Sequence record: PZ445521.1
Source: a phage
Length of the DNA: 64,000 nucleotides
Direction: 5' to 3' (one strand)
Positions 6,679 to 30,304 of this stretch are shown one piece after another. Made by a program: the position numbers and the translations under genes. The notes under the pieces were generated by a model that did no database searches, was not told the DNA's origin, and saw only the letters and a list, made by a program, of their open reading frames with translations. How positions within the stretch are numbered: position 1 is the first letter of the stretch; each line of letters starts with the position of its first letter.

Positions 6679-8266
<1,588 letters not shown>

Positions 8267-8293: not shown

Positions 8294-9472
8294 TTAAAAG
8301 TATTTTTTAAAACTCATCATAACTTTATCATCAACATCATTATCAATCTGTGCAACAAGGTAAGATGACAGTTCTACTTCTTGTGGCGCGGATTGAACAT
8401 TATCAGAATTAAGATATTCACGAATCCAAGGATATGGATGTTTAACCGGAGCATCGGTAATCGGGCATGGAAGACCACAATGTTTCATACGAGATACAGT
8501 TAAGTAATCAATAAAGCTCCACATGCTATTTGTATTTAATCCAGGAACATCGCCATCTTTAAATAAATGAACTGCCCAATCTTTTTCTTGGCGGTTAACT
8601 TCCATGAAAATATCAACTGCTTCTTGTTCACACTCTTGAGCAATTTTAACCCATTCATCGCCATCAGTGCCAAGTTGAAGTTGACGAATAATATATTGAG
8701 TGCCTTTAAGGTGAAGCTGCTCATCACGTGCAATGAACTTCATAATCTTGGCATTACCTTCCATGATTTCCATGTTCTTATGGAAGTTAAAGGTACATGC
8801 GAAAGATACATAAAAACGAATAGCTTCCAATGCGTTGATTACATGCAAACAGAGGTAAAGAGATTTCATTAGCTCATGCTTCCAATACGTCTCATGCTCA
8901 ATAGCATCTTCAATAACGTCTTCGTCTGCATTAATTTCTTTTTGGTATTCGATATCAGCTTTAGCGTTTTCCCAATAACGAGTTTTAATCAGAACATCAT
9001 CATAATAACGTCCAATGGATTCAGCACGTTTCATAATAGCTTCATCTAATACAATTTCATCAAATACCTTCGATGGATCAGTATAAAGATTTCGCATGAT
9101 ATGTGTATATGAACGGCTGTGAATAGTTTCACTAAAAGTCCACGTAGCAACCCATGTATCAAGGCTTGGGTCTGAAATTAATGACATAAGTACAGCAGAC
9201 GGCGCACGACCCTGAATGCTATCCAAAAGTGATTGATACTTCAGGTTATTAGTAAAAATATTCTGCTGATACTGAGGAAGTTTATTAAATTGTGCAGCAT
9301 CCATCATCAAGTTTACTTCTTCAGGACGCCAGAAAAATGATAATTGCTTTTCAGTCAAATCTTCAAAAACTTTATGGCGTTGAATATCATAACGCGCAAT
9401 ACCAAGACCTGAACCGAAGAACATAGGTTCTTTTAAAACATCAACTGGATTTGTATTAAAAACTGTGCTCAT
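8294..9472 (-). CDS. nrdB: ribonucleotide reductase small subunit, uninterrupted (no intron)
   Basis: 392-aa continuous ORF with diiron-tyrosyl radical motifs; matches T4 NrdB as recalled. Confidence 0.9.
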   Translation of the reverse strand: MSTVFNTNPVDVLKEPMFFGSGLGIARYDIQRHKVFEDLTEKQLSFFWRPEEVNLMMDAAQFNKLPQYQQNIFTNNLKYQSLLDSIQGRAPSAVLMSLISDPSLDTWVATWTFSETIHSRSYTHIMRNLYTDPSKVFDEIVLDEAIMKRAESIGRYYDDVLIKTRYWENAKADIEYQKEINADEDVIEDAIEHETYWKHELMKSLYLCLHVINALEAIRFYVSFACTFNFHKNMEIMEGNAKIMKFIARDEQLHLKGTQYIIRQLQLGTDGDEWVKIAQECEQEAVDIFMEVNRQEKDWAVHLFKDGDVPGLNTNSMWSFIDYLTVSRMKHCGLPCPITDAPVKHPYPWIREYLNSDNVQSAPQEVELSSYLVAQIDNDVDDKVMMSFKKYF

Positions 9473-9523
9473 AAATTTTCCGCTTAGTTAATAGTTGGTG
9501 ACTCGTCCGTGAGTCAAATTATA

Positions 9524-11788
9524 TCATAATTTACAGGATGAACAATCTTCAGCTTTTGGAGTTTCTATTTCATAATCATCAGTACCAGAACCATCGCGGG
9601 TATTATGATAATAGAAATTTTTTCCGCCAAAATACCAAAAATACAAAAGGTCATCAATCATTATTGACATTGGAACCTTGCCTTTAGGGAAGATTTGGGG
9701 GTCATAGTATGTATTCGCCGAAGCTGATTGACAAACCCATTTCAGCATAATAGCTACCTGCGTAAGATAAGGTTTATTACCTTTCTTAGCTAATTTCCAT
9801 GTATAGTCGTAAAGGTCTATGTTATGCTCAATATTGGGCACGACTTGATTAAAGGAGCCCTCTTTTGATTCTTTAACAGAGACTGGTCCACGTGGAGGCT
9901 CGATACCGTTTGTACTGTTAGAAACTTGGGAAGATGACTCACATGGCATAAGTGCTGATAATGTGCTATTACGGATGCCAAAGAGCTTAAGGTCTTCCCG
10001 CAGCGACGACCAGTCACAAACGTATTTTGGAGCTGCGATTTGGTCAATCTTTTTATTGTACCAGTCGATAGGTAATTCGCCTCGAGACCAACGAGTGTCT
10101 GAATAATATTCGCAAGGTCCTTTTTCTTTGGCGAGCTTAATGGATGCTTTAATGAGTCCATACTGTAATCTCTCAAATAGTTCATGTGTTAAATCGTTAG
10201 CATCTTCATAAGAAGCAAAGTTACTTGCCAGCCAAGCTGCATAGTTAGTAACACCTACACCAAGGTTTCGACGCTTTTTAGCTTTTTCTGCTTCAGGAAC
10301 TGGATATCCTTGGTAATCCAAAAGATTATCAAGAGCACGAACTTGAACTTCTGCCAATTCATTAATTTTATCTTGGTCTTGCCAATCAAAGTTATCCAGC
10401 ACAAATGCAGATAATGTACACAATCCAATTTCAGCATCAGGACTATTCACATCATTTGTTGGAATAGCAATTTCACAGCACAAGTTGCTCTGACGAATAG
10501 GTGCCTTTTCACGAATAAATGGCGTATAGTTATTCGTATTATCAATGAACTGCACATAAATCCTTGCTGTTCCTGAGCGTTCAGTCATGAGCAATTCAAA
10601 TAGTTCACGGGCTTTAATGCGCTTTTTACGAATATTAGGGTCTTTTTCTGCTGCTTCGTATAATTCACGGAAACGGTCTTGGTCTTTAAAATAAGAATAA
10701 TAAAGCTCGCCACCCATTTCATGCGGACTGAACAAAGTAATGTAATCATTCTTTCCAAAACGTTCCATCATTAGATCATTCAGTTGAACACCATAATCCA
10801 TATGACGGATACGGTTTTCTTCTACACCTTTGTTATTTTTCAAAACGAGAAGATTTTCAACTTCCAAATGCCAAATAGGATAATAAGCAGTAGCAGCGCC
10901 GCCACGAATTCCACCCTGTGAGCATGATTTAACAGCAGTCTGAAAATGTTTCCAAAAAGGAATAACACCAGTATGGCGTACTTCACCCATGCCAATCTTA
11001 GAACCTTCGGCACGAATCATACCAACGTTAATACCAATTCCAGCGCGTTTGGAGATATATTCAACAATTGAAGCAGAAGCCTTATTGATAGACTTTAATG
11101 AATCACCTGCCTCAATAACAACGCATGAACTAAACTGCCGAGTTGGAGTACGGCAACCAGCCATAATAGGAGTTGGTAATGAAATCTGTCGAGTAGATAC
11201 TGCTTCATAAAAACGAATAACGTGTTTTAATCTATCAACAGGTTCATCTTGATGCAATGCCATTCCAATAGTCATAAATGCAAACTGTGGAGTTTCATAA
11301 ATTTGACCAGTGGTTTTATCTTTAACTAGATATTTTTCTTTTAATTGCATCGCCCCGGAATAAGTAAATTCCATATCCCGCTCATGCTTAATTTTTGATT
11401 CTAAAAATGTAATTTCTTCGGCAGAATATTTTGACAACAGTTCAGGGTCATATTTACCTTCATTTACACAGTAAGAAATATGGTCAATAAATGAACGTGG
11501 TTCATACTGCCCGTAAACATGCTTACGAAGAGCGAACATTAAACAGCGTGCAGCTACATATTGGTAATCAGGCTCTTCAACTGAAATAGAATTCGCAGCA
11601 GCCTTAATTACAATGGTTTGAATGTCATCAGTGGTCATTCCATCACGGAGATATGATTTAATATTTTCATATAATTCATAAGGATCTACAGATGTTCCTT
11701 CAGCTGCCCAAGATAAAACTTTAATAATTTTTTGCGGGTCAAAGCTCTGAGAAACACCACTACTTTTGATAACATTAATTAATTGCAT
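9524..11788 (-). CDS. nrdA: ribonucleotide reductase large subunit
   Basis: 754-aa ORF, ATP-cone N-terminus, NLCCEI catalytic motif. Confidence 0.9.
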   Translation of the reverse strand: MQLINVIKSSGVSQSFDPQKIIKVLSWAAEGTSVDPYELYENIKSYLRDGMTTDDIQTIVIKAAANSISVEEPDYQYVAARCLMFALRKHVYGQYEPRSFIDHISYCVNEGKYDPELLSKYSAEEITFLESKIKHERDMEFTYSGAMQLKEKYLVKDKTTGQIYETPQFAFMTIGMALHQDEPVDRLKHVIRFYEAVSTRQISLPTPIMAGCRTPTRQFSSCVVIEAGDSLKSINKASASIVEYISKRAGIGINVGMIRAEGSKIGMGEVRHTGVIPFWKHFQTAVKSCSQGGIRGGAATAYYPIWHLEVENLLVLKNNKGVEENRIRHMDYGVQLNDLMMERFGKNDYITLFSPHEMGGELYYSYFKDQDRFRELYEAAEKDPNIRKKRIKARELFELLMTERSGTARIYVQFIDNTNNYTPFIREKAPIRQSNLCCEIAIPTNDVNSPDAEIGLCTLSAFVLDNFDWQDQDKINELAEVQVRALDNLLDYQGYPVPEAEKAKKRRNLGVGVTNYAAWLASNFASYEDANDLTHELFERLQYGLIKASIKLAKEKGPCEYYSDTRWSRGELPIDWYNKKIDQIAAPKYVCDWSSLREDLKLFGIRNSTLSALMPCESSSQVSNSTNGIEPPRGPVSVKESKEGSFNQVVPNIEHNIDLYDYTWKLAKKGNKPYLTQVAIMLKWVCQSASANTYYDPQIFPKGKVPMSIMIDDLLYFWYFGGKNFYYHNTRDGSGTDDYEIETPKAEDCSSCKL

Positions 11789-12105
11789 AAGTCCTCAACT
11801 TGAAAATCGTCTTTAAACACTCGGTTAACTATATGAGCTATTATATCACCATGACACGGCTTTGGTTTACATGTGCATCCTAGCCTCATTCCACGTAAAG
11901 GCTCTAAATGTGCTTTAGTTATTTCTCCGGATTTAATTCGACGTATAAAATCTTTTTTGAATAATTCAATGGCAGCCTCCCGGCTGCCAGCATCTTTACC
12001 GACGTAATTTCCCCAAAATGTACCACGGTGAATATTAACATCAAAGTCGGATTTATATTTATTCACTACTCGGCATAGACGGCCCACGCTGGAATAATTC
12101 GTCAT
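11779..12105 (-). CDS. hypothetical protein with CxC-x4-CH motif (nrdA.1 position)
   Basis: ORF track; [12 protein letters not shown] motif. Confidence 0.5.
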
Positions 12106-12322
12106 ATTGTTTTTCCGTTAAAACAGTAATATCGTAGTAACAGTCAGAAGAAGTTTTAACTGTGGAAATTTTATTATCAAAATACTCACGAGTCATTTTA
12201 TGAGTATAATATTTTTTACCATAAATGATAATAGGCTGTTCTGGTCCTGGAACTTCTAACTCGCTTGGGTTAGGAAGTGTAAAAAGAACAACGCCAGAAG
12301 TATCTTTAAATCGTAAAATCAT
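12059..12322 (-). CDS. hypothetical protein (nrdA.2 position)
   Basis: ORF track. Confidence 0.45.
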
Positions 12323-13179
12323 ATTGCCATTTTCCCTTTAATTGCTGGATGCGATTCATAATTTTCAAGGATAAAATCTTTCGGTTTCATGTATTCAGTT
12401 AACCAGTAAAGCTGTGTTTCGGTGTCACAATTTCCAAACTCTATAGGCCAATCAATTTTAAGTTCACATAGTTCTTTAGGCTCACGACGTAAAATTTCTT
12501 TACATTGCTCAGTATGATTCATATAGATGTGAGTATTACCACCAGAAAATATCAAATCTCCTGGGATAAGATTACACATCTTAGCCACAATATGCGTCAA
12601 GGCAGCGTACGAGGCAATGTTGAATGGCAATCCCAAGAAAACATCTACACTTCTTTGGTACCATTGTAAATCAAGATAACCATTACGCACATTAAACTGA
12701 TAGAACATATGACAGGGCGGTAATGCCATTTGATTGATTTCAGCTGGATTCCATGCTGAAACGATTTGACGTCGATCAGTTGGTAATTTTTTAATACGAT
12801 CAATAGTTTCAACTAATTGATCCACACCACCGAAATCACGCCATTGTTTACCGTATATAGGACCAAGTTCACCACTATGATATCCTAGGTCTTTAGCCTG
12901 GTTTTCATAGTTATCGTCCCAAATAGTTTTGCCTTGAATAAGACTACCATGAGTGCGAAGACGTAAATCATTAACATTGGTAGAACCGGAAATAAACCAT
13001 AAAAGCTCAGCAATGCATGCATTCCAGGCGAGCTTCTTAGTTGTTACTGCAGGAAAACCTTTACTTAAATCCCAGCGTAATTTAGTACCGAACAAAGCAA
13101 TTGTTCCTGTGCCCGTTCGGTCATCGGTTTCATAGCCATTTTCAAAAATGTCTTTAATTAAATCTTGGTATTGTTTCAT
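12319..13179 (-). CDS. td: thymidylate synthase, uninterrupted (no intron)
   Basis: 286-aa continuous ORF; PPCH active-site motif; matches T4 Td exon-joined length. Confidence 0.9.
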
Positions 13180-13224: not shown

Positions 13225-13572
13225 TCAATACGGTTTAGCATCAAATTTTCTCTCAATTTCAGGCGTGAAATATAATTCTTTACCGCGTTTGGAAAAGCGA
13301 CCAATAATATGATAATTATTCTCATCAAACGTGATATTACCAATATCCATAGCTTTCAACCAAATATCGATATTTCTATCCAACTTTATGTCAAAATTCC
13401 AATACGGAGAACTATTACCGAAAATACTGCAAGCGGATTCAGTAAAACAACTACTATAAATCTTATCTTTAGGAACTACTAATTGATAGACACCTTTAAT
13501 AAACTGAGGACCCTGCCATTTTGGTTGTTTCGTGTCTTTTTCTAATAGAATAGGGTAATAATTAAAATTCAT
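13225..13572 (-). CDS. hypothetical protein inserted between frd and td
   Basis: ORF track, 115 aa; frd and td are adjacent in T4 as I recall. Confidence 0.5.
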   Translation of the reverse strand: MNFNYYPILLEKDTKQPKWQGPQFIKGVYQLVVPKDKIYSSCFTESACSIFGNSSPYWNFDIKLDRNIDIWLKAMDIGNITFDENNYHIIGRFSKRGKELYFTPEIERKFDAKPY

Positions 13573-13591: not shown

Positions 13592-14418
<827 letters not shown>

Positions 14419-14429
14419 ATTATCTCCTA

Positions 14430-14762
14430 TTAAAAAGGATCAGGAACATATCCGCTAGCTTTAATCATTTTAATTAACGTTAACATTCCTTTGTTAACTG
14501 CTCGTGAGATTTCATCAAAAACTTCATCACTAAAAAGTTCTAACACGCCCTTCTGAACTTTTAATTTACAGCCAACAATTTCTTCATCGCCTATAGTAAA
14601 TTCATTACCACCAATTCCACCGAAAAACTTAATTACACCAGTTAACTGTCTTCCACGAGAATATGGGTCGTGTGATAAAGTAATATGAGTCACCCCGGGT
14701 ACAGTTTTAAATTGGCAGCGAATATTTACTTGTGAAATTCCAGTTACATGAATGTCAGACAT
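14430..14762 (-). CDS. hypothetical protein (frd-32 cluster)
   Basis: ORF track. Confidence 0.5.
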   Translation of the reverse strand: MSDIHVTGISQVNIRCQFKTVPGVTHITLSHDPYSRGRQLTGVIKFFGGIGGNEFTIGDEEIVGCKLKVQKGVLELFSDEVFDEISRAVNKGMLTLIKMIKASGYVPDPF

Positions 14763-15073: not shown

Positions 15074-15334
15074 TTATTTTTGAATTTTATCGAGCCACTT
15101 ACCAGGCTTAATCATTTCTTTAGTAGCCTTTTCCATACTTCTGAACTTGACCAATAGAGGATAGGTATCGACACCCATAACTAAACTGGTTACAAGACTG
15201 TGTTCACCTACAAGCCATAACGAATACGTTTGAATACCGAGCCCGTAATTTCTGTCTTTATGGACCCGTACACCCATCACTTCAAATTTCTCACTAGCTT
15301 TTTCTACCGCATCCAGGAAATCATCTTTAGTCAT
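15074..15334 (-). CDS. hypothetical protein (frd-32 cluster); start trimmed to internal ATG
   Basis: ORF track 15074..15376; internal Met avoids 40-nt overlap. Confidence 0.45.
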   Translation of the reverse strand: MTKDDFLDAVEKASEKFEVMGVRVHKDRNYGLGIQTYSLWLVGEHSLVTSLVMGVDTYPLLVKFRSMEKATKEMIKPGKWLDKIQK

Positions 15335-16136: not shown

Positions 16137-17045
16137 TTAAAGGTCATTCAAAAGGTCATCCAGGTCCGTGTCATCAGCACTAGATGAACTACCAGAGCTT
16201 GAGCTCATAAAATCATCTTCAGTTTTTGTATTAAAGTCATCAACATTGAATGCATCCAAATCATCAGCAACTTTATCAGCTTTCTTAGCAGCAGTTGCAG
16301 CAGCACTGCCCATCACAGCAGTTCCCATAACTTGACCGAATTTAGTGCTCAGTTCTTCAAATGATTTGAATTTATCTTTAGAAGTCATTTCAGAAAGATC
16401 AACCATTTGTTCGAACAGTTCTTTCTGGAAAGATTCATCGTCAATGTTTGGAATCGCAGATTGATTCAGGAATTTAGATTCATCGTAGTTACTAAATCCA
16501 GAAACTTGTTTAACTTTCAGTACAAAGTTAGCACCTTCCCACGGACAAGTTACATCAACCGGAGTTTCACCCATTTCAACATCAACTGCAATCATTGCAT
16601 TGATTTTATCCCAGATTTTCTTACCGAAACGGTATTTAAATACTTTACCTTCGTTTTCTGGAGCAGCTGGGTCTTTTACTACAAGAATGTTAGCCCAGTA
16701 AGAAGTTTTACGTTTAACAAGACTGTACTCTTTATTGTCAGTGTTGTACAGATCATTTTTACTGATGTATTGACATACTGGGCAAGAATCGTAATCACCG
16801 TGGGTAGATGAGCATGTTTCGATATACCATTTACCATTTTTCTTGAAACCGTGATTTACAAGAAGTGCGAATGGTGCTTGTTCATCATTTTTAGACGGAA
16901 GAAAACGAATTACTGCTTGACCGTTACCCGCATTGTCGAGTTTCAGTTTCCACTCGCCTTTATCTTCAGAAGAAAAACCACCTTTATTTCCAGCCAGTTT
17001 AGCCATTTGTGCAGCGAGTTCAGCAGTAGATTTACGTTTAAACAT
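16137..17045 (-). CDS. 32: gp32 single-stranded DNA-binding protein
   Basis: 302-aa [53 protein letters not shown]... with acidic Ser/Asp C-tail; matches T4 gp32. Confidence 0.95.
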
Positions 17046-17095: not shown

Positions 17096-17728
17096 TCATA
17101 GCTGGCATAATTCGCAATACTCTGGGTCTTCGAGAGGTATCCAACCCGAGTTGAAATACTTTACCATCGATTTAGCAGTTGTATCAGTTATATTTATATT
17201 ACCTTTAACTCTTCGCCATCCAGGAGTTTTACCGTACAGATTAGAGGATAATAATAACACATAATTCTCGTAAGCAATATGAGATAATTTCCAAGACTCT
17301 ATATTAGCTCGTGATGTTTTCCAAGGTCTGAAATCGTCACGGTTCATATAATTAGCCAATCTCATATGCTCTCTAACTTCCGGGTCTTTAGCTGGGTGAG
17401 TTTCACCACTCACACCAAATCCGCCGCCAGCATATACCAGATTAAAATAGTCTGGATTATCTCTGGCATTTACTTCAAGTTGGTATTTTCGCTCTGCTTC
17501 AATAACATCCAAATCATCATCAATTTGAATTATTTTAACGCTCGGTTTTTGAAGCATTACCGCATTTAAAAATCTTTTTTGTTTACACGAACTCCAGTAT
17601 TCCTTTCCGGAAGAGTCATATATTATTCCGTTCTCAAATGAGCAATTTAATTTACTACCGATATAGTAGTATGGCGGAGTCTTATTTTTGACACGGTCTT
17701 CAAATGTAAACCAATATACTATATTCAT
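17096..17728 (-). CDS. putative seg-like GIY-YIG homing endonuclease (T4 segG position)
   Basis: N-terminus NIVYWFTFEDRVKNKTPPYYYIGSK resembles GIY-x(10-12)-YIG; sits between 32 and 59. Confidence 0.4.
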   Translation of the reverse strand: MNIVYWFTFEDRVKNKTPPYYYIGSKLNCSFENGIIYDSSGKEYWSSCKQKRFLNAVMLQKPSVKIIQIDDDLDVIEAERKYQLEVNARDNPDYFNLVYAGGGFGVSGETHPAKDPEVREHMRLANYMNRDDFRPWKTSRANIESWKLSHIAYENYVLLLSSNLYGKTPGWRRVKGNINITDTTAKSMVKYFNSGWIPLEDPEYCELCQL

Positions 17729-17729
17729 A

Positions 17730-18383
17730 TCAATACTTGCAAGATTTCACAGTTTCAATGAAAACACTTTTAGCTTTCTGCGAATCAATATTTAAAATTT
17801 TTCTATAAGCCTTTAACTTTATAGAATAATTATTCCAGACTAAATTATCAGTCTGTTCATCATGTTTATCGATTATATTTAAAAACGAATCAAGCAAGAT
17901 AAACGTCTCAAACGAAATTATATTCGATTGAAGTAGTTTAAAAATATAACTTGATTGAACTTTTGGATTATATTCAAAAATTTCTTTAAAAGCAGAAACT
18001 TCAACTTTTTTACTAAAATAATAAATGTTGCGAATATCTTCTTCAAACTTAAATTTAATTTGCTTTAAGCGTCCGATATATTCACGATAAAACACAAGTG
18101 CATCAGCGTCAGAGATGTCGCCAATCCAAGCATCTTGGTTAGCAACCAAATTACTTATAAAGATTAAAGCAAGTTCCTTTAATTTATATTTTTCTGATAA
18201 CTTCTGAAAAAAATACTTATCCCTTCGCTTTTGATAAGCGGCATCAGACACCCGCATGCACCAATTATACTTAATAACATCATACTTTCCATTCATATGT
18301 TGTTTTATCATTAAGTATAATTTATAAACTGATTTACCATCAATGTATCTTTCACCACCAGCAGGCATGCGGAGTTTAATCAT
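17730..18383 (-). CDS. 59: gp59 helicase loader
   Basis: 217-aa ORF; length and position match T4 gp59. Confidence 0.85.
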   Translation of the reverse strand: MIKLRMPAGGERYIDGKSVYKLYLMIKQHMNGKYDVIKYNWCMRVSDAAYQKRRDKYFFQKLSEKYKLKELALIFISNLVANQDAWIGDISDADALVFYREYIGRLKQIKFKFEEDIRNIYYFSKKVEVSAFKEIFEYNPKVQSSYIFKLLQSNIISFETFILLDSFLNIIDKHDEQTDNLVWNNYSIKLKAYRKILNIDSQKAKSVFIETVKSCKY

Positions 18384-25725: not shown

Positions 25726-28700
25726 ATGGCTACTTTAAAACAAATACAATTTAAAAGAAGCAAAACCGCAGGTGCACGTCCTGCTGCTTCAGTATTAGCC
25801 GAAGGTGAATTGGCTATAAATTTAAAAGATAGAACAATTTTTACTAAAGACGATTCAGGAAATATCATTGACTTAAGCATTTCCGCTGGCGGTAATATCA
25901 GTGGTAATATCACTCAAACTGGTGATTATACACAGACTGGAAAATTTAATTTAATTGGCCCGCAGATTATAGCAAGTGGTGGATATATTGAGTTTAATTA
26001 TCGTACTACTGGAAGTGGGGCTTGGTCCGGTCAACACACTGCAAAGGCTCCAATTTTTGTAGATTTAAGCTCAGCTACTTCCACATCTGAATATAATCCT
26101 ATAATTAAACAGCGCTTTAAAGATGGAACTTTTTCATTAGGTACTTTAGTTTCTGAAGGTTCGTTGAAGATTCATTATATTGATGAAACTGGTCAATCTA
26201 AATATTGGACATTTGCGCGCTCAGGTAATTTTCAAGTTGATTCTGGTAATTTATTAGTATCTGGTGGGTATTTAGTCGCTCAGAGTAATATTGAAACAAG
26301 AACAGGTTCTTTGATTGGTCCATCTGTTGTAACTAAAAATATTTCATTTGATACGAAAGCGTTTGGACAATACGATTCGCAGTCATTAGTTCAATATGTT
26401 TATCCTGGAACTGGTGAAACAAACGGAATTAATTACCTTCGTAAATTCCGTGCAAAATCTGGTGGTACGATTTATCATGAATTAGCTTCTGCACAAACCG
26501 GAAAAAGTGATGAACTGTCTTGGTGGACCGGTAATACAGCCGTTAATAAACAAATGGGCCTTCGCAATGATGGGTCTTTAGTGTTGCGACGCTCACTCGC
26601 AATTGGTACAATTACAACAGATGAAAACATTAATAATTACGGCTCAACTGGAGCAATGGGTGAATGCTATATAGTCATTGGAGATGCCGCAACTGGTGTA
26701 TCATATAAAAGATCTGGTGTATATGATTTAGTTGCTAATGGTCTTTCTATCGCGTCTATTACTCCTGACAGTTTCCGTAGTACTCGTAAAGCATTATTTG
26801 GACGTTCAGAAGACCAAGGCGGAACATGGAATATGCCTGGAACGAACGCCGCGTTTTTATCGGTTCAAACACAGGCTGATGAAAACACTGCTGGAGACGG
26901 TCAAACCCATATTGGATATAACTCTGGCGGTAAAATGAACCACTATTTCCGTGGTAAAGGAAAAACTAATATTAATACTCAAGAAGGCATGGAAGTTAAC
27001 CCGGGTATTTTGAAATTGGTAACTGGCTCTAATAATGTAATGTTTTATGCTGATGGCGGTATTACATCTGTTAAGCAGCTTTCAATATATAACGGCATAT
27101 ATTTAGCAGCTAATAATTCTACTGCTGGGCTAACATTCGCTCCAACTACTACAATTGATGGCACTAAGCAAATTTTGTGGGAAGGCGGTACTCGTGCTGG
27201 TCAGAATAAAAGCTATGTAACTGTTAAAGCATGGGGTAATTCATTTAACGCATCTGGCGATCGTAATCGTGAAACGGTTTTTGAAGTAGCTGATGGACAA
27301 GGATATTATTTTTATTCACAGCGTGTGGCTCCAAGTGGCTCTGAAACTACTGGGCCTGTTGTAACCCAGTTCAATGGACAAGTTAATGCTAGAGGAAGTA
27401 TTATTACTGACGGAAGTTTTAAAGTTAATGGATTAAGCACTTTAGTCGGTAATGTTACCATGTCTAATGGTTTGTTTGTTCAAGGTGGTTCTTCTATTAC
27501 AGGCCAAGTAAAAATTGGTGGAACAGCAGATGCATTAAGAATTTGGAATGCTGAATACGGGGCTATTTTCCGTCGTTCTGAAGATAAGCTTTATATTATT
27601 CCAACTCCGCAGAATGCTGGTGAATCAGGTGGTATTTCTAATTTACGTCCGTTCTATATTACATTAAGTACTGGTAAAGTTTCCATGGATCATGATGTAG
27701 ATATCGGCGGCGGTAGATTTAAAGTAGAAGTGGCTGGAACTACGGCTGGTCAACGTATTATAGTTAATGCAGCGAGCGATGCTATTAGAATAAATGCTCC
27801 AACACAAGAGTCTTCTAACTTCATTCAAGGACGTAAGGCTGATGTGAATAAATGGTATTTGGGTATTGGCGATGGCGGCAACGTCGTTCGTATGCACAGC
27901 TACACATATTCACATGGTATTGCATTAAATTCTGATTCTGTCGATATTACTAAGCCTCTTAAAGTCGGAAACGCCCAACTAGGAACTGACGGTAATATTA
28001 CCAATGGTTCAGGAAACTTTGCCAACTTAAATACCACGTTAAATCGTAAAGTTAATTCTGGATTTATTACTTATGGAGCAACCTCTGGATGGTATAAGTT
28101 TGCAACTGTAACAATGCCACAATCCACTTCAACAGTCTTCTTTAAAATAGTTGGAGGTTCTGGATTTAATAGCGGATTATTCACACAATGTAATATTGCT
28201 GAAATTGTTTTACGTACTAGTAATGAAAGACCTGCTGACTTAAATGCTGCATTATACACAAGAACAATTGGAGCTGCATTTAAAGATATTGCAGTTAATA
28301 ACGTCTCTGGAGATACATATGACATTTATGTTTCTGCTGGAACATATTGTAATCAATTAGCTTGTGAGTGGTCATGTACCGAAAATGCTACTGTTAGTGT
28401 TATTGGTATTAACTCATCTACACAATCACCTGTAGATGCTCTTCCAGATACAGCAGTTAACGGTCAAGTTGCTAATGTTCTTAATAACTTGGTTGATCGC
28501 GGTAAAGTTAAGCGTTATGAAGCCGATTCTGAAATAGCTATTAATAGCCCAACCGGTATTCGTATCAGAAGCAATGGCGATAAAACTGGTTCTGTGGCTA
28601 CAATGTTACGAAATGATGGCGGTAGTTTTTATATTCTGTTTACAGATAAAAATGCCACCGATGGCGCAGCAACTGTTAATGGTGATTGGAATAGTAAACG

Positions 28701-29487
28701 TCCTTTCGCAATTAACTTAACAACCGGCGAAGTGATGATGAATAATGGCATAGCTGTTCGCAGCGCTGCTTTATTCTATAATAGCATAAACGTCAAAGAT
28801 AATGGTTCTATTAACTTTGATAAATCAGGTGCTAACCCGAGAAATATGAGAATATTTCATGCTGGCGATGCTTCTCGCGGTAACCGTATTGAAATTGCCG
28901 ATGAAACTAACTATATTGCTTACTTTGAAAAAACTCCAGGTGGAGCTAACCGCTTTGTAGTAAATAATGCTACTGTGGCTGGTGTTAATCAAATGAATTC
29001 ATTTGGTATTAACATCAATAACGCACTTGGTGGAAACAGTATAGCATTTGGTGATAATGACACTGGCATTAAACAATCCGGTGACGGACTTCTTGATATC
29101 ATTACTAACGCCGCACGACGAATGAGATTCCAGACGGGTGACACTTATTCTGACATGAATATAAATGCTCCAAACGTTTATATTCGTTCTGATATTCGTT
29201 TGAAATCTAATTTCAGACCTATTGAAAATGCTCTTGAAAAGGTTGAGCAGCTTGATGGTTTAATCTATGATAAAGCTGACTATATAGGTGGTGAAATTGT
29301 TCAGACTGAAGCAGGTGTTATTGCTCAGAAATTGAACGAAGTATTACCTGAAGCAGTTCGTGAAGTTGAAGATATTAAGGGTAATAAAATACTCACTATT
29401 TCTTCTCAATCCCAGATTGCTCTTCTAGTTGAAGCTGTGAAAACACTTTCTGCTCGTGTAAAAGAACTTGAATCTAAACTTATGTAA
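25726..29487 (+). CDS. 37: gp37 long tail fiber distal subunit (T2-type, 1253 aa)
   Basis: ORF MATLKQIQFKRSKTAGARPAASVLAEGELAINLKD...; followed by separate gp38 adhesin. Confidence 0.9.
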   Translation: MATLKQIQFKRSKTAGARPAASVLAEGELAINLKDRTIFTKDDSGNIIDLSISAGGNISGNITQTGDYTQTGKFNLIGPQIIASGGYIEFNYRTTGSGAWSGQHTAKAPIFVDLSSATSTSEYNPIIKQRFKDGTFSLGTLVSEGSLKIHYIDETGQSKYWTFARSGNFQVDSGNLLVSGGYLVAQSNIETRTGSLIGPSVVTKNISFDTKAFGQYDSQSLVQYVYPGTGETNGINYLRKFRAKSGGTIYHELASAQTGKSDELSWWTGNTAVNKQMGLRNDGSLVLRRSLAIGTITTDENINNYGSTGAMGECYIVIGDAATGVSYKRSGVYDLVANGLSIASITPDSFRSTRKALFGRSEDQGGTWNMPGTNAAFLSVQTQADENTAGDGQTHIGYNSGGKMNHYFRGKGKTNINTQEGMEVNPGILKLVTGSNNVMFYADGGITSVKQLSIYNGIYLAANNSTAGLTFAPTTTIDGTKQILWEGGTRAGQNKSYVTVKAWGNSFNASGDRNRETVFEVADGQGYYFYSQRVAPSGSETTGPVVTQFNGQVNARGSIITDGSFKVNGLSTLVGNVTMSNGLFVQGGSSITGQVKIGGTADALRIWNAEYGAIFRRSEDKLYIIPTPQNAGESGGISNLRPFYITLSTGKVSMDHDVDIGGGRFKVEVAGTTAGQRIIVNAASDAIRINAPTQESSNFIQGRKADVNKWYLGIGDGGNVVRMHSYTYSHGIALNSDSVDITKPLKVGNAQLGTDGNITNGSGNFANLNTTLNRKVNSGFITYGATSGWYKFATVTMPQSTSTVFFKIVGGSGFNSGLFTQCNIAEIVLRTSNERPADLNAALYTRTIGAAFKDIAVNNVSGDTYDIYVSAGTYCNQLACEWSCTENATVSVIGINSSTQSPVDALPDTAVNGQVANVLNNLVDRGKVKRYEADSEIAINSPTGIRIRSNGDKTGSVATMLRNDGGSFYILFTDKNATDGAATVNGDWNSKRPFAINLTTGEVMMNNGIAVRSAALFYNSINVKDNGSINFDKSGANPRNMRIFHAGDASRGNRIEIADETNYIAYFEKTPGGANRFVVNNATVAGVNQMNSFGININNALGGNSIAFGDNDTGIKQSGDGLLDIITNAARRMRFQTGDTYSDMNINAPNVYIRSDIRLKSNFRPIENALEKVEQLDGLIYDKADYIGGEIVQTEAGVIAQKLNEVLPEAVREVEDIKGNKILTISSQSQIALLVEAVKTLSARVKELESKLM

Positions 29488-29488
29488 A

Positions 29489-29517
29489 AGAGGGCTTCGG
29501 CCCTCTAAGGATTTTTT
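29489..29517 (+). promoter_or_regulatory. UUCG stem-loop between 37 and 38 overlapping gene 38 RBS region
   Basis: agagggc-ttcg-gccctct hairpin then aaggatttttt; ATG of 38 at 29519. Confidence 0.5.
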
Positions 29518-29518
29518 A

Positions 29519-30304
29519 ATGGCAATTGTAGGTGTTCCTGGCTGGATTGGTGAATCTGCCGTGAATGAAACTGGACAACGTTGGATGGATGCTGCAATGA
29601 GAGCAGTCCGTGTTTCAGTTCCCGGTTGGATGAGCTCAATGGCCGGACAATCTAAAGAAGTATATTATAGCATTGGTGCTAGTAATTCTTATAATAAAGA
29701 TACATTAATAAACTGGATAAAAGCACAAGGGTCCACGCCTGTTGTTATTACTATTACAGGAAATATTGTTTCTCAATCTACTGGTGTTCCATGCTTAGAT
29801 TTTCCTAGCTCATTAACTAATGCATACGTGACACTTAATATCAATTCAGGCGTGCATGTTTGGGGCCGTGGCGGGAATGGCGGAAATAACTCTGCAGGTG
29901 GAGCAGGAGGAACTGCAATAAATAATGGAATTGGAACTAGATTGCGTATTAACAACAATGGTGTTATCGCAGGAGGCGGTGGCGGCGGTGGCGGCGGATA
30001 TTATTCTCCTTTTTCACAAATGAAATTGACTTTTGGCGGTGGCGGCGGTCGTCCATTTGGTGCTGCTGGCGGGTCTGCTAATATGGAACAGGGCGCTACT
30101 GCTGGTACTATTTCTGCACCTGGTAAAGGGTCTGTCAATGGTATCTATAATGGCGGGAATGGCGGTGATGCTGGTGCCGCAGGTGGTAAATGTAATATTC
30201 GTGGGCAAGGATCAGAATATAACGGCGGTGCGGCTGGTAAAGCTGTTACTGGTAATGCTCCAACTTGGACTAAGGTTGGTACAATATATGGTTCAAGAGT
30301 ATAA
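29519..30304 (+). CDS. 38: gp38 tail fiber adhesin with glycine-rich motifs (T2/T6 type)
   Basis: 261 aa from MAIVGVPGWIGESAVNETGQRW.. with GGGGGGGGGYY and GGGGGRPFGAAGG glycine-rich blocks; track ORF has 17-codon upstream extension. Confidence 0.85.
   Translation: MAIVGVPGWIGESAVNETGQRWMDAAMRAVRVSVPGWMSSMAGQSKEVYYSIGASNSYNKDTLINWIKAQGSTPVVITITGNIVSQSTGVPCLDFPSSLTNAYVTLNINSGVHVWGRGGNGGNNSAGGAGGTAINNGIGTRLRINNNGVIAGGGGGGGGGYYSPFSQMKLTFGGGGGRPFGAAGGSANMEQGATAGTISAPGKGSVNGIYNGGNGGDAGAAGGKCNIRGQGSEYNGGAAGKAVTGNAPTWTKVGTIYGSRV

Follow-up and report, generated by a model that had tools for sequence, protein, structure and literature searches.

The question raised by this locus is whether the open reading frame (ORF) that lies between genes 32 and 59 of a T4-like phage encodes a homing endonuclease or an unrelated accessory protein. 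The ORF was analyzed in a 64,000-nt stretch of phage DNA (PZ445521.1), referred to here as the window. A sequence-only reading had described a 210-aa ORF between genes 32 and 59, which is exactly what the ORF list contains (Table 1), and had proposed a free-standing homing endonuclease of the Seg type with a GIY-YIG module, at the place of segG in T4. The product begins with M-NIVYWFTFEDRVKNKTPPYYYIGSK, and the translation opens with MNIVYWFTFEDRVKNKTPPYYYIGSK.

Comparison of the ORF product with T4 SegG (gp32.1; NP_049855.1), annotated as 'site-specific DNA endonuclease; GIY-YIG family', gave 209 identities over 210 residues (BLASTP, 99.5%, E = 2e-164) in proteins of equal length. The sole difference was at residue 57, which is valine in the window and leucine in T4, and the two genes differed at about 12 synonymous positions. 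PHROG 7504 ('homing endonuclease') matched the ORF from end to end (1.9e-133). Near-identity to T4 SegG and the PHROG match, together with the same flanking genes, bore out the proposal and went beyond it: by sequence, the ORF is the segG orthologue itself and not merely a Seg-like candidate. A 2.3-kb query spanning gene 32, the ORF and gene 59 had a 100% match in Shigella phage JK38 (MK962755.1, a Tequatrovirus) and matches of 97.6-97.7% in many T4 records. The JK38 annotation coordinates coincide with those of the window if MK962755.1 is read from base 127,627, and that record already annotates its segG copy as 'homing endonuclease'. The feature is already known, segG having been characterized since 2003, and as a discovery the gene matters little here: the identification was correct and ordinary. 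It is useful as a calibration, in that a real homing endonuclease was recognized from a degenerate motif and synteny.

Table 1. Features at the 59-32 junction (positions are those of the window)
Feature	Position	Strand	Description and source
Gene 59	17730-18383	-	Adjoins the segG start (ORF list, JK38 annotation)
Gene 59 junction	17729-17732	-	Gene 59 stop TGA 17732-17730, one nucleotide (17729), then the segG ATG (sequence read directly)
segG ORF	17096-17728	-	Free-standing homing endonuclease gene, 210 aa; ATG 17728-17726, stop TGA 17098-17096 (ORF list)
segG-specific insertion relative to segG-less relatives	17106-17729	-	Alignment of window, T4 and T2 junctions
N-terminal nuclease domain, divergent GIY-YIG type	17414-17728	-	About residues 1-105
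C-terminal all-helical domain	17099-17392	-	About residues 113-210; presumed DNA-binding/target-recognition module
T4 late-promoter consensus TATAAATA inside segG	17191-17198	-	146 nt upstream of the gene 32 ATG (pattern search)
Inverted repeat GCTATGA/TCATAGC across the segG stop codon	17080-17102	-	Arms 17096-17102 and 17080-17086
Gene 32 (ssDNA-binding protein)	16137-17045	-	Documented SegG target in segG-less phages; T4/T2 mosaic allele here

segG has the same orientation as genes 59 and 32, between which it lies, and it ends 50 nt before the gene 32 ATG. Neither a promoter of its own nor an obvious Shine-Dalgarno sequence was found when the sequence at the gene 59 junction was read, so expression of segG is probably coupled to translation of gene 59. 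In the alignment of the window with T4 and T2, homology was lost directly after the gene 59 stop codon and was regained at CCAGCTATGAGG, with 7 nt left to the stop codon of segG. The insertion amounts to about 624 nt in place of the T2-type spacer of about 37 nt, which is unrelated in sequence and carries a TATAAATA of its own. Genes 59 and 32 are 684 nt apart here, compared with 99 nt in segG-less relatives; the distance was 680-693 nt in 10 loci with segG and exactly 99 nt in all nine sampled loci that lack it.

Full-length segG at 95% identity or more was found in 142 phage records. The 32-59 region as a whole was found at this level (at least 95%) in about 500 records, and query coverage reached at least 80% in only 141 of these; the remaining records (T2, RB18, RB51, phiD1, ECML-134 and others) gave a two-piece match without segG. 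The ORF is thus absent from most close T-even relatives. In 80 more distant T4-like contigs the adjacency of genes 59 and 32 was kept, and SegG was present only in two close relatives. Sporadic presence among close genomes at an otherwise conserved junction is the pattern that marks a free-standing homing endonuclease gene. About 23 of the approximately 30 variable sites among 10 close segG copies (some three quarters) were at third codon positions, a bias in the aligned sequences that indicates purifying selection on the gene. Two copies had changes in length. A metagenomic copy (L006 about 1818-2451, IMGVR_UViG_3300045988_128797) had an extra base (+1) in an A-run at codon 52 that broke the frame, reflecting either a decaying, frameshifted copy or a homopolymer sequencing error, and the UFV-AREG1 copy had codon 158 deleted in frame.

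Membership in the GIY-YIG superfamily was less obvious from the protein sequence. The sequence-only reading had seen a resemblance to a GIY-x(10-12)-YIG module: the IVY (residues 3-5) and YIG (residues 22-24) elements are present, but 16 residues (W6 to Y21) separate them rather than 10 to 12, and a short helix is predicted in the gap at residues 10-15. Its caution that the match was partial was partly justified, in that the Pfam GIY-YIG profile gave no match; the Gly of GIY is absent, with N or H at that position. Scans of SegG against Pfam and NCBIfam gave no match at E ≤ 10, while PF01541 detected the positive controls, I-TevI (2e-18) and the EndoII encoded in the window (2e-6), and none of 29 homologues had a precomputed Pfam domain. 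Searches against PDB sequences with SegG (phmmer) and with two family profiles (hmmsearch) found no catalytic-domain match, and a 26-sequence profile retrieved no PDB chain of the GIY-YIG type. When both family alignments were compared with I-TevI by HHalign, the catalytic domain stayed unaligned, and the wider family profile matched I-TevI only through the NUMOD3 helix, a region absent from SegG itself.

The predicted structure gave a different answer from the profiles. The AlphaFold model of SegG was confident (pLDDT 91), with, over its first 100 residues, a strand-helix-strand followed by a hairpin, a helix, a strand and a further helix, and the best PDB match of the predicted fold was the I-TevI catalytic domain, which has the GIY-YIG alpha/beta fold. 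A Foldseek search of viral models returned Seg-like, GIY-YIG and NUMOD proteins, and the C-terminal half of the predicted structure resembled helix-turn-helix (HTH) and winged-helix DNA-binding domains. The conserved residues of the N-terminal domain are Y5, R12, Y22-I23-G24-S25-K26, Y44, S47, E79 and N96. Y5, in a predicted strand (2-8), was found in 64 of 64 relatives; in the predicted strand 21-26, Y22 and G24 were each found in 65 of 65 and I23 in 62 of 65. E79, in a predicted helix (75-85), and N96, 17 residues further on, were both present in 65 of 65, and their order and secondary structure suggest that they are the equivalents of the metal-binding E75 and the downstream N90 of I-TevI. 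Across the 65 relatives Y5, Y22, G24, Y44, S47, E79 and N96 did not vary and I23, S25 and K26 hardly varied, and all of the family-invariant residues are intact in the SegG of the window. The canonical catalytic Arg of the helix after YIG (R27 in I-TevI) appears to have no clearly conserved counterpart, although this is uncertain: a basic residue was found at the position of SegG R52 in only 7 of 64 distant relatives, while K26 was conserved in 63 of 65 and R12 in 52 of 58, and either K26 or R12 may replace the Arg in SegG-type nucleases. Based on the invariant residues, the predicted fold and the published biochemistry, it was concluded that SegG is a divergent member of the GIY-YIG superfamily with an enlarged inter-motif loop.

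An exhaustive HMM search for the SegG-type N-terminal domain yielded 504 representative clusters. None of 65 sampled members matched PF01541, two matched PF19835 (SegE_GIY-YIG) weakly (E about 2e-3), and NUMOD3 nuclease-associated motifs were present in 40 of 65 distant relatives. Standard GIY-YIG profiles therefore miss the whole SegG-type family, and pipelines based on Pfam and NCBIfam will label such genes hypothetical. Relatives of SegG were also found in the 59-32 slot itself. These included VR7 gp32.1 (L097 1053-1601) and a protein encoded on a metagenomic T4-like contig (L098 3001-3633) that was 39% identical to SegG with the same architecture. In a second such contig (L099 3001-3663) the protein in the slot, P0014, had only the nuclease half in common with SegG (55% identity), and its C-terminal half was different, with a sub-threshold NUMOD3 and a CxxC...HxxC (Cys/His) motif. 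The order of genes around the slot is the same in both contigs (rnh-dsbA-33-59-[endonuclease]-32), and this suggests that the DNA-binding module was exchanged in place. The SegG-type module, carried by at least 504 representative clusters, may even form a distinct GIY-YIG branch unseen by current profiles, with a large loop, no conserved Arg and interchangeable DNA-binding modules at 59-32, a tentative idea that at present seems rather doubtful. If it were true, target specificity would evolve by swapping the gene-32-proximal half in place. The failure of the profiles to detect the family and the module swapping at the 59-32 junction are the only points here that are new, and they are only mildly so.

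For T4, segG is listed as active and free-standing, a member of the GIY-YIG family that is inserted between 32 and 59 and targets gene 32 (PMC2988022 Table 1, citing Liu et al. 2003, J Mol Biol 334:13). Experiments demonstrated that T4 SegG cleaves gene 32 of T2 (PMC2988022, PMC2330249, PMC535899, citing Liu et al. 2003), and SegG is what excludes the gene 32 markers of T2 when T4 and T2L are crossed (PMC2330249; PMC2988022 section 17). The sequence-only reading had named marker exclusion between co-infecting T-even phages as an effect of such endonucleases. Free-standing endonucleases are described as cutting hundreds to thousands of base pairs from their own genes (PMC2988022). Because the cut site is distant from the endonuclease gene, resection must reach the homology that flanks that gene. 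The SegG cut probably lies roughly 330 bp from the insertion site.

The best-supported account of the copy in the window is the published one, homing, and it is highly probable that this member of the T4 Seg group, segG, is a free-standing homing endonuclease gene acting in this way. The gene would be part of the gene 59 transcript, its translation probably being coupled to that of gene 59, and its product would combine an N-terminal divergent GIY-YIG-type nuclease domain with a C-terminal helical DNA-binding domain. During co-infection with a segG-less phage of the T2 type (99-nt spacer), SegG would cut gene 32 of its partner at a specific site, some hundreds of base pairs away from the insertion site. 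The broken ends would be resected by exonuclease, and recombinational repair on the template of the genome carrying segG would then copy segG and adjoining gene 32 sequence into the recipient. The expected outcome would be super-Mendelian inheritance of segG, localized exclusion of the partner's gene 32 markers, and mosaic alleles of gene 32. Deletion of segG would be discouraged by the gene 32 promoters and the part of the gp32 translational-operator pseudoknot that lie inside or overlap it. This analysis provides the identity with T4 SegG, the position and sporadic distribution of the gene, the boundaries of the insertion, the conserved residues and the predicted fold, and the T4 literature provides T2 gene 32 cleavage, marker exclusion, embedded promoters and RNase E processing. 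By analogy, the JK38 SegG, with one substitution (L57V), would be expected to behave like T4 SegG.

Gene 32 in the window combines polymorphisms of the T4 type with others of the T2 type, and in this mosaic the 5' block at nt 52-66, which encodes LAGNKGG in a 302-aa protein, is T2-type despite the presence of segG. Of the nine other phages with segG in the sample, pSe_SNUABM_01 was intermediate, and eight carried a block that was fully T4-type and had a 3-nt deletion. The block was fully T4-type in 8 of 10 loci with segG versus 1 of 9 without it, and nt 230 was C in 10 of 10 versus 3 of 9. In this small sample of 19 loci these sites were skewed with respect to segG, and no fixed or diagnostic difference was found. 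Since the window carries segG together with a T2-type block at nt 52-66, linkage of segG to gene 32 is not absolute. The mosaic is consistent with the published account of co-conversion.

In addition to encoding a nuclease, segG overlaps sequences that appear to belong to the expression of gene 32. The TATAAATA within segG is a candidate for an embedded gene 32 late promoter. The inverted repeat across the segG stop codon belongs to the region of the autoregulatory pseudoknot in gene 32 mRNA, and in the junction alignment its sequence was common to the segG-less T2 from CCAGCTATGAGG on. An Rfam scan for the gene 32 pseudoknot gave no family match, and a sigma-70 promoter scan gave nothing above shuffled expectation, a scan that is uninformative for T4 middle and late promoters. 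In T4, segG is described as a promoter-less cassette that relies on upstream promoters, the middle and late promoters of gene 32 are located within it, RNase E processing in segG stabilizes the gene 32 message (PMC2988022), and its reading frame shares sequence with the 5' arm of the gp32 autoregulatory pseudoknot (PMC535899).

A rival explanation is that the ORF is kept mainly as the carrier of such elements (middle and late promoters, RNase E site, pseudoknot 5' arm), with the nuclease inactive or irrelevant in this phage. The TATAAATA inside the ORF and the overlap of the pseudoknot arm with the segG stop codon speak for this explanation, and embedded promoters have been proposed to favor the retention of segG (PMC2988022). 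Against it, the variable sites are mostly synonymous, with every family-invariant residue intact. Relatives that lack segG express gene 32 perfectly well from the 99-nt spacer with its own TATAAATA, and T4 SegG, different at one residue, is active according to the literature. A mainly regulatory role is very improbable.

The sequence-only reading had itself allowed for an unrelated accessory gene; in that case the fold would not be that of a nuclease, and the resemblance of IVY and YIG to the motif would be due to chance. Of the two findings that it had named as speaking against an endonuclease, namely a conserved non-nuclease fold without a GIY-YIG profile match and presence in all T-even phages, neither was obtained, since the predicted fold is nuclease-like and most close relatives lack the ORF. 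The missing Pfam and NCBIfam GIY-YIG matches, the atypical spacing of the motif and the lost Gly are compatible with this; against it stand near-identity to an experimentally characterized SegG, a predicted fold whose best PDB match is the I-TevI catalytic domain, and the nuclease-associated NUMOD3 motifs of the distant relatives. The accessory-gene reading was rejected on the 209 of 210 identities to T4 SegG and the I-TevI-like predicted fold, and its probability is negligible, lower still than that of the regulatory explanation. A homing endonuclease gene that also houses regulatory elements of its neighbor remains the preferred reading.

Several other regions of the window were noted. A second GIY-YIG nuclease, EndoII (denA), is encoded at 7856-8266 on the minus strand and, unlike SegG, matches PF01541. 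In the JK38 annotation (window 8294-13179) the CDS lengths point to uninterrupted nrdB (8294-9472) and td (12319-13179) genes, with 51 nt between nrdA and nrdB. On this basis mobE and the T4 introns in td (with I-TevI) and nrdB (with I-TevIII) appear to be absent, so that segG would be the only homing endonuclease gene in this stretch. Four small ORFs on the minus strand (13225-13572, 14173-14418, 14430-14762 and 15074-15334) are not found in the td-frd-frd.1-frd.2 region of T4; they matched PHROGs 1928, 3183, 3566 and 4423, all of unknown function, and are variably present among Tequatroviruses such as T6. The distal subunit of the long tail fibre, gp37 (25726-30217, plus strand), is represented in JK38 by two overlapping CDSs (25726-28446 and 28433-30217), which may reflect a frameshift, an annotation artefact or a real split.

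The closest known system is T4 SegG, which is the same gene with the same length and 59-32 position, a stop codon that overlaps the gene 32 pseudoknot arm, and an embedded late-promoter consensus. The differences are V57 here versus L57 in T4, the phage that carries the gene, which is JK38, and the adjoining gene 32, here a T4/T2 mosaic whose N-terminal codon block is of the T2 type. The other free-standing Seg endonucleases of T4, SegA-F, which carry out intronless homing, are likewise intergenic between conserved genes, in the orientation of their neighbors and sporadic among T-even phages, and they too have targets in a flanking conserved gene and cause marker exclusion (PMC2988022, PMC2330249), but their nuclease domain belongs to a sequence family separate from that of SegG. 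I-TevI (PDB 1LN0), the prototype GIY-YIG homing endonuclease, is 15% identical to SegG without a profile-level match. It has about 10 residues between the motifs versus 16 in SegG, which has in addition a beta-hairpin inserted after YIG but no conserved Arg equivalent to R27, and which lacks the DNA-binding parts of I-TevI (zinc finger, NUMOD3 and HTH). Finally, I-TevI is encoded within an intron, whereas SegG is free-standing and cuts far from its insertion site (PMC2988022).
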